Part shown: piece after piece, positions 30,782 through 36,024 of the stretch
Position numbering within the stretch: the stretch's first letter is position 1
Layout of the letters: each line of letters starts with the position of its first letter
Sequence record: OZ035811.1
Source: Dhillonvirus LM40P1
Strand: one strand, 5' to 3'
Length of the DNA stretch: 45,013 bases
The notes under the pieces: generated by a model
The model's input: the letters and a program-made list of their open reading frames with translations, nothing else
What the model was told of the DNA's origin: nothing
Database searches by the model: none
Position numbers and translations under genes: made by a program

Positions 30782-31040
30782 CCAATAAATCAGCGTCGTG
30801 AATGTTGTCGATTACGCGAACGTCGGCCCCGCGCTTCGCCATGCGCTCATGTTCACGTACCTGGTGCGGCTTCGGCTTACCACCGGGGCGCTTCACTTCA
30901 ACGAATACGACTCTGCCGTTGATGATGATAATCAGGTCGGGCGCGCCGGTACGCCCTTCCCATGCCATTTTACGGCAGAATCCACCTGCCTCTTTTACCT
31001 CTTTCATCAGGTGACTTTGCACCTTGCCTTCAGGAGTCAT
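30762..31040 (-). CDS. VRR-NUC domain nuclease
   Basis: Segment VFVEVKRPGGKPKPHQVREHERMAKRGADV matches the VRR-NUC E.K...Q pattern; TAATG coupling to polymerase gene. Confidence 0.65.
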   Translation of the reverse strand: MTPEGKVQSHLMKEVKEAGGFCRKMAWEGRTGAPDLIIIINGRVVFVEVKRPGGKPKPHQVREHERMAKRGADVRVIDNIHDADLLVAELVA

Positions 31041-33328
31041 TATTTTCTGTACCTGTACATTATGTCGCCTTCAGCGGCGAGCGGGAAGCCCTTAGCCCAC
31101 ACCGGCAGATCGCACATTAACCGGCATAACTCTTCGGTCGTGTAATCGTCCGTGTCCGGCACTTCGGTGATTAATTCATCGTGCACCGACAGGACGATTT
31201 CGTATCCCGCCGCTTCGACGCCAGGCATTGCCCATGCGAGAATATCGCGGCACAGCGCCTGCACGATGTTCTCCGTCAGTTTGCCGCCGTAGGTGTACTG
31301 GAAGCCCCACTGGCGCGTCGTCTGATTCTCGCCCTGATATTTAATGCGGGTGCTGGTTTTCTTCTTGCCAGTATCCTCATCGATTTCAGTCGTGACAGAC
31401 AGCGCAATCCCCGGATAGCTCATGATACGACCGGACGGCAACTCCACTTTCAACCACCAGCCTGGCGCGTCCGGGTCGTCCCGCTCATCGTCAAACGTAG
31501 GGTCGTGCTTCGCCTTCGTGCGCATGATTTTAAGCGCCTGTTTGCCGTCTGGACGCACGTTAGCACCGGCCCAGTATGATTTGCCCGGATTGCGGATTGC
31601 GCACAGCACAGCGTCTTCCAGTTCGGCCCAGAATCTAACCGTTTCCGGGTGGGACTCACGCCACATACGCTTGATCGCATCGCAGGTAAGCCACACGTTC
31701 TTCGGCAGGATGTAAGTCGGTCGCTCGTCTTTCTTGCCAGGCTTCGGCGGACGCTTCGCTTCATTAATCCTCGCGTACTCGTACCCGCGTTTCGCTGCGG
31801 CCCATATGTGATCCGGGAACGTGCCTTTCATCACGTCTGCCATCGCATACAGGTCAAGACCAAGGTTTTTGGCAAACTGCAAGAACGCCGCAACGCCACC
31901 ACCATAGCCGAGGCCCAATTCACAGGCCTTACCGATCTGGCGGAGGTCTTTGCGGTTGGCCTTGATATAATCCGGGTCGAGGCCGAACATCTTACCGGCA
32001 GTTTCGCAATAAATATCGCGTCCCGCCTTAAAGACCATCAACGCAGTTTTCTCGCCCGCAATCCAGGCAAGGCCGCGTCCTTCCACGTTGGAGTAGTCCG
32101 CTACAACAAACTTCTTACCCTTAGCCGGGATAATGCAGCCGCGTACGGTCGATGCTGTCAGCTTAGATATGTCGTACGCCCAGTGTGCGGTCCCGCGTAA
32201 TAGGGAATTGATGCCGTTGGTTAGCATGTGCGACCGGACCCAAAACGACACGTCGCTTTCACCATCACGGCGCTTGATCTTGCCTTCGTGGTCGTCGCTG
32301 TACTCGCCACGCGCCAGGTTTTGAGGCTGAAAACCTTTACCGGCCCAGCGCAATGTTCGTTTAGCACCACCATACTGAAGACAACCACGGCGGCGACCGT
32401 CAGACGACAGACCGTTAACGAGCGGATTGTATTTGGTCGACGCCGTTGATGACGCACCGAGGCGCATTTCAATCAGAACTTTGCCCTCGTCCGGGAAGTC
32501 CGGGTCTTCCAGCAAATCATTCAGTGTGGATTTCTGCGCGTTATGGATAGTGAAAGCTGGCGCAATATCTCGTAACAACGGCAGGAAATCATTTCCGGTC
32601 AGCTTACCGCCAAACTTCTCCATCGCTTCTTCTTTCAGTTCTTCCTTGTGCGCTTCAACGGCCTTGATGGCGGCGTAGGCCAGTTCGGTGTCCACGTTGA
32701 AGCCGCGGTCGTTGATCAACTGGTCAATTGCCAGTATCTGGTCTTCCTTCGGAGTATTACCCCAATCCGGGATACGCCAGTATACTTCACGCATCGCGAT
32801 AATATCGAAGCGTGCATACTTGAGGAATTTGGCCCACTCTTCCGGGTGAGTCTCGCGAGTGTAGCGACGGACTTTGTAAGTCTTCGGCGTTGGCTTACAG
32901 AATCGCTTAATCAGCGCCTTGCCCGCTTTATCTTTCGCATGTTCAGCGTCAACGCCCAATACCTGGCATTGCATGTCAAGGCTGCCGGGGAGGGCGTGGC
33001 GGAAGGCCATAATCATGGTGTCTTCGATCTGGCAAACCGGCAGGTCAATACCCCACTTCTCACGGATAACCAGGCGGTCAAACAGGAGGCCGTTAGCCAT
33101 TACGATTTTTGCTTTCTTGCGGACTACCGCACGCAATGCCTTACGCAGTTCACTCGGCATCTTCGGCGATTCAGTAGCGTCCCACGTCTGAACACGGCCT
33201 TCATCAATGGCGTAGGTGCAGATCATGATTTCCGTGGTTGGGTGTTCTGCATACGCGTATGCGCCGACCTTCTTCAGATCAACGCCGCTAAACGTTTCGG
33301 TATCGAGGAATAGTCGTTCGAAGTTCAT
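31040..33328 (-). CDS. DNA polymerase I (family A) with 3'-5' exonuclease domain
   Basis: Exo motif LFLDTETFSG; pol motif A DYSNVEGR, motif B RQIGKACELGLGYGGG, motif C VHDELI; start at Met 42 of listed ORF (ATGA overlap). Confidence 0.85.
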   Translation of the reverse strand: MNFERLFLDTETFSGVDLKKVGAYAYAEHPTTEIMICTYAIDEGRVQTWDATESPKMPSELRKALRAVVRKKAKIVMANGLLFDRLVIREKWGIDLPVCQIEDTMIMAFRHALPGSLDMQCQVLGVDAEHAKDKAGKALIKRFCKPTPKTYKVRRYTRETHPEEWAKFLKYARFDIIAMREVYWRIPDWGNTPKEDQILAIDQLINDRGFNVDTELAYAAIKAVEAHKEELKEEAMEKFGGKLTGNDFLPLLRDIAPAFTIHNAQKSTLNDLLEDPDFPDEGKVLIEMRLGASSTASTKYNPLVNGLSSDGRRRGCLQYGGAKRTLRWAGKGFQPQNLARGEYSDDHEGKIKRRDGESDVSFWVRSHMLTNGINSLLRGTAHWAYDISKLTASTVRGCIIPAKGKKFVVADYSNVEGRGLAWIAGEKTALMVFKAGRDIYCETAGKMFGLDPDYIKANRKDLRQIGKACELGLGYGGGVAAFLQFAKNLGLDLYAMADVMKGTFPDHIWAAAKRGYEYARINEAKRPPKPGKKDERPTYILPKNVWLTCDAIKRMWRESHPETVRFWAELEDAVLCAIRNPGKSYWAGANVRPDGKQALKIMRTKAKHDPTFDDERDDPDAPGWWLKVELPSGRIMSYPGIALSVTTEIDEDTGKKKTSTRIKYQGENQTTRQWGFQYTYGGKLTENIVQALCRDILAWAMPGVEAAGYEIVLSVHDELITEVPDTDDYTTEELCRLMCDLPVWAKGFPLAAEGDIMYRYRK

Positions 33329-33495
33329 TGTTTCACCCTTACCACGGCCTCGGCGTCCCCTTTCAGAGAGTAGATGCCGTCGGTTATTGTGATTATGTCG
33401 TCGTTCTGTTTCACTTCGGCAACCGTGAAGTATTCGCCCAGGAATTTGGACCACACGCGCATTCCCGGTTTCACATCTTTAGCTTTAATTCTCAT
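33325..33495 (-). CDS. small protein (56 aa, KPGMRVW motif), unlisted short ORF
   Basis: ATG at 33495 with AGGACA SD; stop overlaps polymerase ATG; shares KPGxRVW with the 30291-30512 product. Confidence 0.4.
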   Translation of the reverse strand: MRIKAKDVKPGMRVWSKFLGEYFTVAEVKQNDDIITITDGIYSLKGDAEAVVRVKQ

Positions 33496-33507
33496 TACAT
33501 TGTCCTA

Positions 33508-33533
33508 TGAAAAAGCCCGCATAAAGCGGGCTT
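33508..33533 (-). terminator. intra-operon rho-independent terminator / attenuator
   Basis: On minus strand AGCCCGC ttta TGCGGGCT followed by TTTTT. Confidence 0.45.
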
Positions 33534-33551
33534 GAGTAGTGGGCTTTGCCC

Positions 33552-34271
33552 TTAGCGGCGTCGACGTTTACGTGGTGCTTCGTCTTCGTCATCGTCGTCA
33601 TCTTCATCACGGCGGCGCTTAGACTTGCGCGGTTTTTCATCTTCATCATCGTCGTCACGACGTTTTGACTTTTTGGATTTACGCGGTGCTTCGTCTTCGT
33701 CATCATCCAGGTCGTCGTCAGAGCAATATGCACCGCCGCCGCCACCGAAGGAATCCCCATCATCACGGAAGCGCATACCCAGCAGACCACAGCCTAAGCC
33801 TTTGCCGTTGGTATTGTTCCAGGCCCAAATATCTAAGGAAACGTTGCAATAGCAACCGGAATAGATTTCCTTCCCTTCGATTTCGTCGCCGTCGATGGTC
33901 AGACCCTGCTCCGTCTGCTTCTCGCCTTCGGAAGTCTGGATGATCGGCTGTTTGAATGATTTAGCGTTGATATACAGCTTACCTTCAAACTCTTCCGTTA
34001 CTTCTTCACGCTCATCTCCATCTCGAACGGCACATTCTTTCGAATCCTGCGCGTAGTGGCGGTCCATCCACTTATCGGCGTTCTTCTCAGACTTCAGTTT
34101 TTCGGTGAGCACTGCGCGTGCCGCCGCTTCCACTTTGTCCACCTGCGGATCTTCTTTATCAAGAATAATCACCGCACGATATGCCGGTTTTTGTCCATCC
34201 TGTTTAGGGGTATCACGCTCCCAAATTTTCAGGAAGCATACACGTACATTTTTCAGGTTGACTTTAGCCAT
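33552..34271 (-). CDS. putative ssDNA-binding protein with repetitive charged C-terminal tail
   Basis: ATG at 34271 with GAGGAA SD; T7 gp2.5-like overall layout; three tandem DDDEDEAPRKSKRRR-type units at C-terminus. Confidence 0.4.
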   Translation of the reverse strand: MAKVNLKNVRVCFLKIWERDTPKQDGQKPAYRAVIILDKEDPQVDKVEAAARAVLTEKLKSEKNADKWMDRHYAQDSKECAVRDGDEREEVTEEFEGKLYINAKSFKQPIIQTSEGEKQTEQGLTIDGDEIEGKEIYSGCYCNVSLDIWAWNNTNGKGLGCGLLGMRFRDDGDSFGGGGGAYCSDDDLDDDEDEAPRKSKKSKRRDDDDEDEKPRKSKRRRDEDDDDDEDEAPRKRRRR

Positions 34272-34367
34272 TTTCCAATTCCTCATTTCACATGTATCGG
34301 GGTTATTAGAAGCCACCCCGTCCGGCTTGGTTGCTAATGTACTTGGTTGCGTTTCCGCGGTCAAGTG

Positions 34368-34601
34368 TTATTTATCAAAAAGTTTTAAAATCAGGTCGAG
34401 ATATTTGTGCAGCCACACCAGTGGAGGGCGGTGCACGTTGTTTTCCATCCAGTTCAAACAGGCTTCGTTATAGCCGTCGTCCCATAAGCGGGATGGGTGG
34501 CGAATCATCCAGGCCAGCGCCAGCAGACCGCCGCAGGTATGTACTACGAATCCCAGCGCCGCAAGCGGCAGCACCATAATCATTGCCATAATCTTATTCA
34601 T
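34368..34601 (-). CDS. small membrane protein
   Basis: ATG at 34601 with GAGGAT SD; hydrophobic helix IMAMIMVLPLAALGFVV. Confidence 0.4.
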   Translation of the reverse strand: MNKIMAMIMVLPLAALGFVVHTCGGLLALAWMIRHPSRLWDDGYNEACLNWMENNVHRPPLVWLHKYLDLILKLFDK

Positions 34602-36024
34602 CGCCCAAATCCTCGTCGCTTGCTTCTTGCCATTCCGGGCGCGGGTCGTCAACTGGTGCCAGGACCGGTTTCGCCGGCGCACGCGTGATTTTATCTTGCA
34701 GTTTCGCCCACACTTTCGGTTTCTCATCCTTCAGCACCTTCTCGGCATCAGTAGGGCTGATTAATGATTCCTTGTACATCAGGTCGCGCTTGATCCGGGC
34801 CGTTGTGAATACAGCGATAACTTCGCTTTCATCCTTCCACTTACGCGCACCTTCACGACCAGCTACCAGCTTCAGGCCCAGCGCTTCGCCGTCACCGGCT
34901 AACACTGCTTTGAATACGGCAGCCTCGATCGCTTTGATGTGCTGGCGCATGGTTTCCAGGCCGTCGTAAGCCTTCTTCAGTTCTTCCGTGGTCATAGCAC
35001 CGGCTGGCGCTTCTTTCTTTCCACGCTTCGCACGTCGGGCAGCTTTCCGGGCTTCGAGGTCCATGTTCTGGTCGTGGTTTTTGCATTCTTCCTCGGCGGC
35101 AATGCTTACATCGTCGCCCAGGTCTTCGTCGGTTGCCGTTGGTGGCGTCATTGTGTCGATGGCGGCTTTAGCGCGGGCACTACATTGGTCCGCAAATCGA
35201 CACCACTGACACGCATCGGCGCTCGGACGGAAGTCTGCACGGGTGAGATTCTTCTTACCCTTAGCGAGGGCATCCAGGGCGGCTACTGCGCGTTTTGCCG
35301 CGTACTTGGCGAAGATTTCCAGTGCTTCCACTGAAATATCCCACTCCGATGCACCGCCGCAATACGGCTGGAAGATGACCAGGCGAACGGTGGTAATGTC
35401 GTACATCTTTTGCAGCTTGCGCAGCAGGCCGAGCGCATACAGCATAAGCTGTTTGTTCTCTTTCGCCTCGACCTTATGGCGTCCGGTCTTCAGGTCGCCC
35501 ACAATGAGCATGTACGTGCCGTCGGTCTTCTTCATGACCATAACCATATCGGCAGTACCGAAGGTCTTGATCGCTTCGCCGTCAATCTCGTAGCCTTTGT
35601 GCAGGACGCGAGTCAGATCCGCGCGCATCTCAAGCTGCACAAACTCGGCAACTTCAAGCAGCGGTCGCCAGTGGTCGATGTACGCGTCGCACTGTTTCAC
35701 CATGTCGTCAGTTACCAGGATGGCGTCCTTAGGTGCTTTCGCTGCTGCTTTAACTGGTCCTTTACCCTGATTTTCGACGTAGCACCCTTTATATGTCTTC
35801 GCCGTGATGTGGTCTTCGCCTGCAATGATGCGGTTTAGTACCACTTCAGATACGGTGTGCATACTCGTACCGTTGATCGCGGCTTGCCCGGATTCGTTCG
35901 GAATACCTTTCTCCACCACCAGGGCGGCGGGACACCCCATCCATTTTTTAGCGCCGGATGGGCCGAGTAATGAGTGTTCTGTGTTACTGCCGGATTGCGT
36001 CTTGCGCTTCGCTTTGATAGCCAT
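34594..36024 (-). CDS. PD-(D/E)XK exonuclease (RecB/Cas4-like) with C-terminal Cys cluster
   Basis: GTADMVMV...IVGDLKTG...EAKENKQLMLYALG nuclease core and CQWCRFADQC cluster. Confidence 0.6.
   Translation of the reverse strand: MAIKAKRKTQSGSNTEHSLLGPSGAKKWMGCPAALVVEKGIPNESGQAAINGTSMHTVSEVVLNRIIAGEDHITAKTYKGCYVENQGKGPVKAAAKAPKDAILVTDDMVKQCDAYIDHWRPLLEVAEFVQLEMRADLTRVLHKGYEIDGEAIKTFGTADMVMVMKKTDGTYMLIVGDLKTGRHKVEAKENKQLMLYALGLLRKLQKMYDITTVRLVIFQPYCGGASEWDISVEALEIFAKYAAKRAVAALDALAKGKKNLTRADFRPSADACQWCRFADQCSARAKAAIDTMTPPTATDEDLGDDVSIAAEEECKNHDQNMDLEARKAARRAKRGKKEAPAGAMTTEELKKAYDGLETMRQHIKAIEAAVFKAVLAGDGEALGLKLVAGREGARKWKDESEVIAVFTTARIKRDLMYKESLISPTDAEKVLKDEKPKVWAKLQDKITRAPAKPVLAPVDDPRPEWQEASDEDLGDE

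Follow-up and report, generated by a model that had tools for sequence, protein, structure and literature searches.

An acidic C-terminal tail is present in all T7-type ssDNA-binding proteins (SSBs) of known structure and in bacterial and phage SSBs generally (PMC5686142). Reviews and structural papers describe this tail as a mimic of ssDNA that gates DNA binding and docks replisome partners via a terminal hydrophobic residue. In Enc34 ORF6 it sits in the groove of an adjacent molecule, where it controls the discrimination between ssDNA and dsDNA (PMC5686142), and in T7 gp2.5 it stabilises the dimer (PMC10359462) and has been implicated in the binding of the polymerase and the primase-helicase (PMC5686142). 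Condensation of Escherichia coli SSB depends on the tail and its cooperativity is governed by the disordered region (10.1101/797431). The gp2.5-like genes can be part of a known replication module, duf2800-gp2.5-polA, which is characteristically found without a separate ssb gene (PMC8093625).

SSBs also recur as triggers of phage defence, and Retron-Eco8, Hachiman, ShosTA and AbpAB all sense phage SSB. In SECphi4, SECphi6 and SECphi18 the orthologue of the protein described below has been identified by experiment as what triggers Retron-Eco8. Toxicity of Retron-Eco8 follows when the SECphi4 orthologue is expressed, as it does with T7 SSB, and the C-terminal tail of T7 SSB is dispensable for this activation. 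In the papers on Retron-Eco8 and Enc34 the flexible tail is left out or tails are called acidic. Here we describe the SSB of LM40P1, a Dhillonvirus (HK578-like E. coli siphophage), as encoded in the window, i.e. the whole stretch of 45,013 nucleotides of record OZ035811.1 that was analysed.

Results

The SSB / annealing-protein gene of LM40P1 (33552..34271, minus strand; ATG at 34271..34269, stop at 33554..33552) encodes a protein of 239 aa. In a program-made list of open reading frames the frame runs on to a TTG at 34364. The ATG at 34271 was preferred because it is preceded, 7 nt to its 5' side, by the ribosome-binding site GAGGAA, because the Pfam match sets in at residue 3 and because the resulting MAKVNLK start is the one given for the SECphi4 and SECphi18 orthologues (Stokar-Avihail et al., Table S2). 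Upstream of the gene a consensus scan identified a sigma-70-like promoter, TTGACC-17-TACATT (34336..34364, minus strand), which at 9/12 positions is a consensus match only. The stop codon is followed by a terminator-like hairpin, GCCCGC-TTTAT-GCGGGC with a subsequent T run (33510..33533, minus strand), which was read from the sequence and is absent from the output of that same scan; in the relatives MK373790, MK373789 and MK373791 a 'terminator' is annotated under the matching stretch. The gene is flanked by those of a DUF2800 PD-(D/E)XK exonuclease (34594-36024, minus strand) and of the family-A DNA polymerase PolA (31040-33331, minus strand), which places it in the duf2800-gp2.5-polA replication module; the annotation of phage Bas85 agrees with such a module without a separate ssb gene. 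The SSB region is matched by 154 phage records, with that of phage Ioannina being 99% identical.

The protein had been called SSB-like in the first-pass annotation, and the family searches and structure comparisons leave that assignment standing. The protein matches Pfam family PF10991 (Enc34_ssDNA-bd, formerly DUF2815) over residues 3-192 (E 2e-31, 109.5 bits against a cut-off of 26) and PHROG 112, 'Gp2.5-like ssDNA binding and annealing protein' (E 2e-54). PF10991 was the sole Pfam family reported, without a Pfam match to the classical bacterial SSB family PF00436. The solved DUF2815/Enc34 ORF6 structures were also matched by sequence, and a profile built from 79 homologues matched 4jg2, 4klk and 5odj at E-values of 9e-35 to 5e-30. 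An AlphaFold2 model made with the 79 homologues had a mean pLDDT of 83, with values above 90 for residues 1 to ~170. In a Foldseek search of the PDB with this model the matches were 4klk (1.2e-11), the Enc34 SSB structures 5odl (2.4e-11) and 5odj (to 1e-10), and T7 gp2.5 (1je5, 1.6e-6); the TM-score, normalised to the target, was 0.7 for the Enc34/DUF2815 structures, and structures of bacterial SSBs appeared at E-values above 0.2 only. The tip of the LM40P1 protein is basic and not of the DDDIPF type. Residues 1-170 are predicted with confidence to form an OB fold of the T7 gp2.5/Enc34 type, the modelled ssDNA-binding domain being delimited at residues 1-172 (33756..34271, minus strand).

Among the residues of Enc34 ORF6 that contact ssDNA (Trp150, Asn154 and Tyr156, the last of which stacks on it), Trp150 aligns with W149 and Asn154 with N153 of the LM40P1 protein. 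Tyr156 aligns with N155, with W151 nearby, and the N-domain identity to Enc34 ORF6 and the DUF2815 family is only about 19-25%. Judged from its sequence, the product is a T7-gp2.5/Enc34-type SSB and probably the sole SSB and strand-annealing protein of the phage.

The OB domain is followed by a Gly-rich hinge, DSFGGGGGAYCS (residues 173-184; 33720..33755, minus strand), at which the pLDDT drops to ~69 and, for residues 178-180, to below 50. The tail proper comprises the last 55 residues (33555-33719), DDDLDDDEDEAPRKSKKSKRR, DDDDEDEKPRKSKRRR and DEDDDDDEDEAPRKRRRR, and is laid out as three units that each consist of an acidic run, x-Pro-Arg-Lys and a basic run, with RKRRRR at the end. By alignment, unit 1 is DDDLDDDEDE-A-PRK-SKKSKRR (residues 185-205; 33657..33719), unit 2, the variable internal unit, DDDDEDE-K-PRK-SKRRR (residues 206-221; 33609..33656), and unit 3 with the tip DEDDDDDEDE-A-PRK-RRRR (residues 222-239; 33555..33608), all on the minus strand. 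The three tandem acidic/basic units ending in RKRRRR that the first-pass annotation had described are thus found in these 55 residues, and the interval that it gave, 33552-33700, covers most of the tail while missing the first 19 nt of unit 1. A feature of the PF10991 family, an acidic tail that closes with a hydrophobic or aromatic residue, is absent from the LM40P1 SSB.

Of the 55 tail residues 26 are acidic and 20 basic, alternating in six blocks, and the other nine are L, A, P and S; the net charge is about -6. Along its charged residues the sign switches 5 times, against 22.6±3.3 times when those residues are shuffled (a count as low as 5 never arose in 200,000 shuffles), and kappa, a measure of charge patterning, is 0.62 against 0.12±0.06 in shuffles. 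The charge segregation is far beyond chance. The AlphaFold2 model has low confidence in this region (pLDDT below 50 at residues 200-233), which is consistent with a disordered tail. A match of the tail to RNase E (PDB 4oxp, E 0.34) was dismissed as compositional only, and one to PHROG 15004 (E 6e-5) as probably compositional.

At the DNA level, a repeat search identified three 43-nt copies (33567-33609, 33624-33666 and 33678-33720) at spacings of 57 and 54 nt and with 65-81% identity. Tandem Repeats Finder, run on 33000-34000, reported no repeat of unit length and only a micro-period of 6 nt (33578-33605). Given this identity and the silence of Tandem Repeats Finder, the DNA repeat is weak and far clearer in the protein; the imperfect tandem DNA repeats of the first-pass annotation therefore exist, in a form that a standard search for them misses. 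The codons for PRK differ among the three units (CCG CGT AAA, CCG CGC AAG and CCA CGT AAA).

Unit number varies among close relatives. The products of 18 Dhillonvirus genes, with N-terminal domains that are 77-99% identical, range from 224 to 261 aa, a spread that is almost entirely due to the presence of 2, 3 or 4 units. Unit 1 is nearly invariant and internal units are gained or lost; the C-terminal PRKRRRR is present in 18/18 genes and the end DEDEAPRKRRRR in 17/18. The tail DNA of LM40P1 and that of the 99% identical OZ035746 are the same except for one clean in-frame gap of 54 nt (18 codons). The junction of this indel, which also separates LM40P1 from phage 'rolling', is in the DNA alignment the 15-nt direct repeat GATGAAGATGACGAC (33594..33608, minus strand), which four-unit relatives have twice, 54 nt apart, and LM40P1 has once, without the intervening unit. 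A clean indel between short direct repeats is what slippage or unequal recombination typically leaves behind. OZ035780 has a different three-unit arrangement, an independent rearrangement. From these comparisons, units are evidently gained and lost on a time scale of ~1% genome divergence, and the suggestion of the first-pass annotation that the repeats could vary in copy number thus holds, both among the Dhillonviruses and against a 99% identical genome. Every indel seen in intact genes is in frame.

With all pairs of the 18 Dhillonvirus genes pooled, and with D/E and K/R exchanges scored as non-synonymous, the tail has a pS of 0.38, a pN of 0.059 and a pN/pS of 0.156, and the OB domain a pS of 0.34, a pN of 0.024 and a pN/pS of 0.07. 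By these values the tail is somewhat less constrained than the fold and clearly under purifying selection at the protein level.

In three records the frame shifts before or within the tail: in Ioannina (OQ589852) by a 1-nt deletion in the hinge run GGCGGCGGC, in vB_EcoS-22664B1 (MZ234008) by a 1-nt deletion in GACGACGAT, and also in the metagenomic P0008. For Ioannina and 22664B1, the two that were examined in the DNA itself, the ordinary reading frame runs on undamaged past the deletion, so these frameshifts are probably sequencing errors. Programmed frameshifting in the shifted relatives was considered and rejected, as single bases are missing, at differing positions, and the ordinary frame is unbroken beyond them. 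Were the frameshifts in the three records real, the phages would not need the tail to form plaques. As a matter of annotation, single-base errors push gene callers into an open alternative frame, which yields spurious 'SSB' proteins of 269-284 aa.

The kind of tail follows the relatedness of the proteins. The set of 79 homologues comprises 31 with at least 43% and 48 with at most 39% N-domain identity to the LM40P1 SSB. An alternating acidic/basic tail with 2-4 acid-base units is present in 31/31 of the former, i.e. down to ~43% identity and across several phage genera, and is net negative in 30 of these 31 clade members. Among the latter, 46 of the 48 have a tail of 19-32 aa in which no more than two residues are basic and the end is hydrophobic (e.g. 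...DEAEFF, ...ADDLV or ...ADDIPW). Together with the characterised relatives (PMC5686142), these 46 agree with the statement in the first-pass annotation that the tails of classical SSBs and T7 gp2.5 are purely acidic. As judged from these homologues, the alternating tail marks a clade. Both grounds on which the first-pass annotation could have fallen are removed: the N-terminal domain is related to SSBs, and in relatives the tail is neither invariant nor ordinary.

Genes read from GenBank gave the same division. Exactly one unit, DDLEDDEDETPRRERRRNR or DLEDDEEDEAPRRERRRR, is present in Jerseyvirus ER23, in Kagunavirus phage 26 and in a Klebsiella phage, such that a single DEDE[TA]PRRERRR(N)R forms the entire tail, as one unit does in the Guernseyvirinae; Serratia phage Otaku has three units, and the tails of Bordetella BIP-1 and of APSE-1 are of the classical acidic kind. 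The departure from the acidic tail is present in all tails read from Dhillonvirus, Jerseyvirus, Kagunavirus and the Klebsiella phage. Of 60 distinct clade tails, 5 have a single acid-to-basic junction, 20 have two, 19 three and 16 four, with Pro at 144 of the 166 junctions. A tblastn survey of a phage collection gave 950 records; 354 of these are from Salmonella phages and 244 from Escherichia phages, and Kagunavirus is represented.

We also searched the whole library for homologues, which gave 2071 hits at E-values up to 1e-3; of the 147 best-scoring new representatives, ~116 have purely acidic tails. Alternating tails were found in several distant lineages, namely P0199 (six DDDDDRGSRSRSR units and a DLVD end), P0218 (repeat units of the DDDDDDRRSSRRR type and a DDDI end) and P0182 (an Arg/Asp/Ser-rich tail of 164 residues with a DDLV end). 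By their sequences these tails are unrelated to that of LM40P1 and independently acquired, with the classical tip kept, which implies that charge-block tails recur in the family and that the basic tip is special to the enterobacterial clade.

Discussion

The closest described proteins are Enc34 ORF6 and the other DUF2815 members (5odj, 5odk, 5odl, 4klk and 4jg2), with which the LM40P1 SSB shares PF10991, the predicted fold, the layout of an OB domain with a disordered tail, and the DUF2800-PolA module. The tail sets it apart: that of ORF6 is purely acidic, with D or E at 16 of the last 29 residues (PMC5686142), and those of the other solved members are purely acidic as well, whereas in LM40P1 three blocks bring 20 basic residues into the tail, which ends in RRRR. 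T7 gp2.5 is similar in its architecture, in its fold (1je5), as a trigger of Retron-Eco8 and probably in a dual role in ssDNA binding and annealing, but its tail is acidic with an essential terminal aromatic residue (...EEADEDGDF). Because the LM40P1 tail lacks a terminal hydrophobic residue and has blocks of opposite charge, its tip cannot dock in the manner of gp2.5.

Other likenesses are more distant. E. coli SSB also has a disordered C-terminal region with a conserved terminal peptide, the acidic-hydrophobic DDDIPF, but it is a tetrameric member of PF00436 and its linker is rich in Gly, Gln and Pro instead of being charge-blocked. In T4 gp32 a basic, Lys/Arg/Ser-rich N-terminal 'LAST' motif (KRKST) serves cooperativity, and an acidic C-terminal domain serves regulation and partner binding. 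The PRKSKKSKRR blocks of LM40P1 resemble KRKST in composition, a functional analogy only, as gp32 has an unrelated zinc-containing OB fold, carries its charged segments at opposite ends of the protein and has no repeats. Acidic tracts that alternate with Lys-rich blocks are also known from disordered regions of the nucleolar proteins nucleolin and Nopp140. These show the same blocky, high-kappa polyampholyte pattern without homology and in a different biology, so that the analogy is physical only. In polymer physics, strongly charge-segregated (blocky, high-kappa) sequences tend to self-associate or self-coacervate.

The explanation that in our analysis accounts best for these observations, to which we assign a probability of roughly 0.55, is that of a gp2.5/Enc34-type SSB whose replaced and amplified tail acts as a multivalent electrostatic module. 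An ancestral short acidic run with a hydrophobic end would have been replaced, in an enterobacterial siphophage lineage (Dhillonvirus, Guernseyvirinae and relatives), by a module of an acidic run, a proline and a Lys/Arg run ending in arginines, which in Dhillonvirus would then have multiplied to 2-4 copies as short direct repeats in the GAY/GAR-rich coding DNA recombined or slipped. The acidic blocks would most likely still be the ssDNA-mimicking, autoinhibitory and partner-binding element that they are in gp2.5 and Enc34 ORF6, a role that they probably keep, given a tail whose net charge is negative and whose model confidence is low. The basic blocks and the PRKRRRR tip could offer sites of opposite charge to the acidic blocks of neighbouring SSBs, to DNA or to an acidic surface of a replisome partner. 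As a multivalent blocky polyampholyte, the tail may join SSB molecules or SSB-coated strands and so promote cooperative assembly or condensation on ssDNA as well as strand annealing, with the number of units setting the valency. The suggestion of the first-pass annotation, that an alternating tail may recruit partners in a way of its own, is likewise a hypothesis. The family, the fold, the disorder-like low confidence of the tail model, the charge pattern, the distribution over the clade, the copy-number polymorphism and the purifying selection are shown by the analysis, and we have high confidence in this descriptive part. The odds that the mechanism is right are about even in outline and lower in detail, and whatever is said here on what the tail binds is what we infer. 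Against the mechanism speak the Retron-Eco8 data, in which escape mutations spare the tail and T7 SSB activates the retron without its own, as well as the tolerance of different unit numbers, the Asn155 in place of Tyr156 and, if they are real, the three frameshifted records. It is possible, if doubtful, that the PRKRRRR tip after its acidic run is a charge-inverted substitute for the acidic-hydrophobic docking peptide of SSBs and, with the repeat blocks, drives the electrostatic self-coacervation of SSB-coated ssDNA into phage replication or recombination condensates whose valency is tuned by unit number. If true, this would be a second, independently evolved solution for partner recruitment and cooperativity in SSBs, present in several hundred sequenced Dhillonvirus and Guernseyvirinae phages.

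A tail that is a slippage-prone appendage of low complexity, in which a vaguely charged disordered end suffices and the unit number drifts neutrally, would fit the 2-4 units among close relatives, the indels between short direct repeats, the frameshifted tails in three records and the fact that no tail phenotype is known; the tolerance of 2-4 units does indicate that the exact length of the tail is not critical. Nevertheless, we think this unlikely in view of the low pN/pS (0.156) despite a pS of 0.38, the near invariance of unit 1 and the invariance of PRKRRRR, the Pro at 144 of 166 junctions and the retention of the pattern to ~43% N-domain identity in several genera. Moreover, the indels in intact genes are all in frame and the Ioannina and 22664B1 frameshifts suggest sequencing error. 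Purifying selection on the tail (pN/pS 0.16 at a pS of 0.38) argues that it is neither junk nor a DNA-level element. The latter would make the DNA repeat itself functional (as origin iterons or a protein-binding array, lambda O-like) and the peptide repeat a by-product, and although three copies with a spacing of 54-57 nt lie within a replication gene, this is very improbable. The copies are only 65-81% identical and go unreported by Tandem Repeats Finder, the three PRK motifs use different synonymous codons, and the Guernseyvirinae have a single unit. Synonymous sites diverge no less in the tail (pS 0.38) than elsewhere in the gene (0.34), whereas amino-acid changes are kept few, the opposite of what constraint on the DNA would produce. 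The iteron or origin reading was rejected on account of this equal synonymous divergence and of the differing codons.

The link with phage defence invites another explanation, in which the tail is a contingency locus: the gain or loss of a unit would alter sensing by Retron-Eco8, Hachiman, ShosTA or AbpAB, hence the differences in copy number between near-identical phages. The identity of the Retron-Eco8 trigger in SECphi4, SECphi6 and SECphi18, the recurrence of SSBs as triggers and the unit indels on a background of 99% identity are compatible with this. We consider it quite improbable, however, since the escape mutations listed by Stokar-Avihail et al. (Table S2) include none in the tail, the SSB changes reported for SECphi4 and SECphi18 being T56P or upstream, in the promoter; one SECphi4 mutation that escapes Retron-Eco8 is located in the intergenic region 5' of the SSB gene. 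T56 is present in the LM40P1 SSB.

Conclusions

The SSB family and the role of this orthologue group as a defence trigger were already known. What appears to be new is the conserved, repeat-amplified acidic/basic tail with its arginine tip, as no earlier account of a mixed-charge SSB tail came up in our literature search. With it, phages of a large and much-sampled group break the acidic-tail rule in a conserved manner. As to the proposed multivalent electrostatic module, nature provides a series of tails with 1, 2, 3 and 4 units in which charge patterning can be related to SSB cooperativity, annealing, condensation and partner choice. The reagents for this already exist, because these phages are used in therapy collections and in defence research and the same protein is the trigger of Retron-Eco8.

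Charged tails in other SSBs

Tails with repeated, alternating charge were also found in three distant PF10991 members recovered by the library-wide search, namely P0199 (six DDDDDRGSRSRSR units, ending in DLVD), P0218 (repeat units of the DDDDDDRRSSRRR type, ending in DDDI) and P0182 (a tail of 164 residues rich in Arg, Asp and Ser, ending in DDLV). The classical acidic-hydrophobic tip is kept in all three, and these alternating-charge repeat tails are independent. When searched alone, the tail of the window SSB (33552-33716, residues 184-238) matched PHROG 15004 (E 6e-5), a family described as 'single strand DNA binding protein', where it aligned to profile positions 301-361 of 421. A charged segment of this kind may also be present in another, unrelated family of phage SSBs, or the match may reflect composition alone.

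Frameshifted SSB records

A different tail, reading MTKMKHRARL..., was found in the SSBs of phage Ioannina (OQ589852, 1584-2438), phage vB_EcoS-22664B1 (MZ234008, 384-1193) and the metagenomic homologue P0008, which are annotated or called at 261-284 aa. This tail is what the acidic/basic repeat encodes in its +1 frame, a frame that in all three remains open beyond the true stop and into the downstream gene. In Ioannina and vB_EcoS-22664B1 it results from a single-base deletion in each SSB gene, located in GGCGGCGGC and GACGACGAT, respectively, and behind the deletion the normal tail frame is still intact in both GenBank records. Errors in sequencing or assembly that have spread into the protein databases are the probable source of the frameshifts in the two phages and in P0008.

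Neighbouring genes

Between the exonuclease and SSB genes lies an ORF of 119 aa (34368-34727, minus strand). It overlaps with the exonuclease gene (34594-36024) at the 3' end of the latter and, judged from its start (MNKIMAMIMVLPLAALGFVV...), looks like a small membrane protein. Relatives are annotated with a shorter version of about 80 aa. The Ioannina orthologue carries the odd label 'mature oligodendrocyte transmembrane protein'.

On the other side, the mechanically called DNA polymerase ORF (31040-33454, minus strand) starts from a GTG at 33454 and runs over the gene of a conserved 56-aa protein; the likely PolA start is the ATG at 33331 (MNFERLFLDTETF...), which matches the annotation in relatives. 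The Pfam DNA_pol_A match covers a stretch of only 90 residues (E 6e-17), whereas PHROG 17 covers the whole protein, and the window PolA is therefore divergent. The 56-aa ORF itself (33325-33495, minus strand), located between the SSB and PolA genes, belongs to phrog_10102 (E 3.5e-27), a family of unknown function. Its orthologue in SECphi18 carries a frameshift, E21fs, in one escape mutant, the row of which adjoins those of DNA-polymerase mutants in what is apparently the Borvo block (Stokar-Avihail et al., Table S2).
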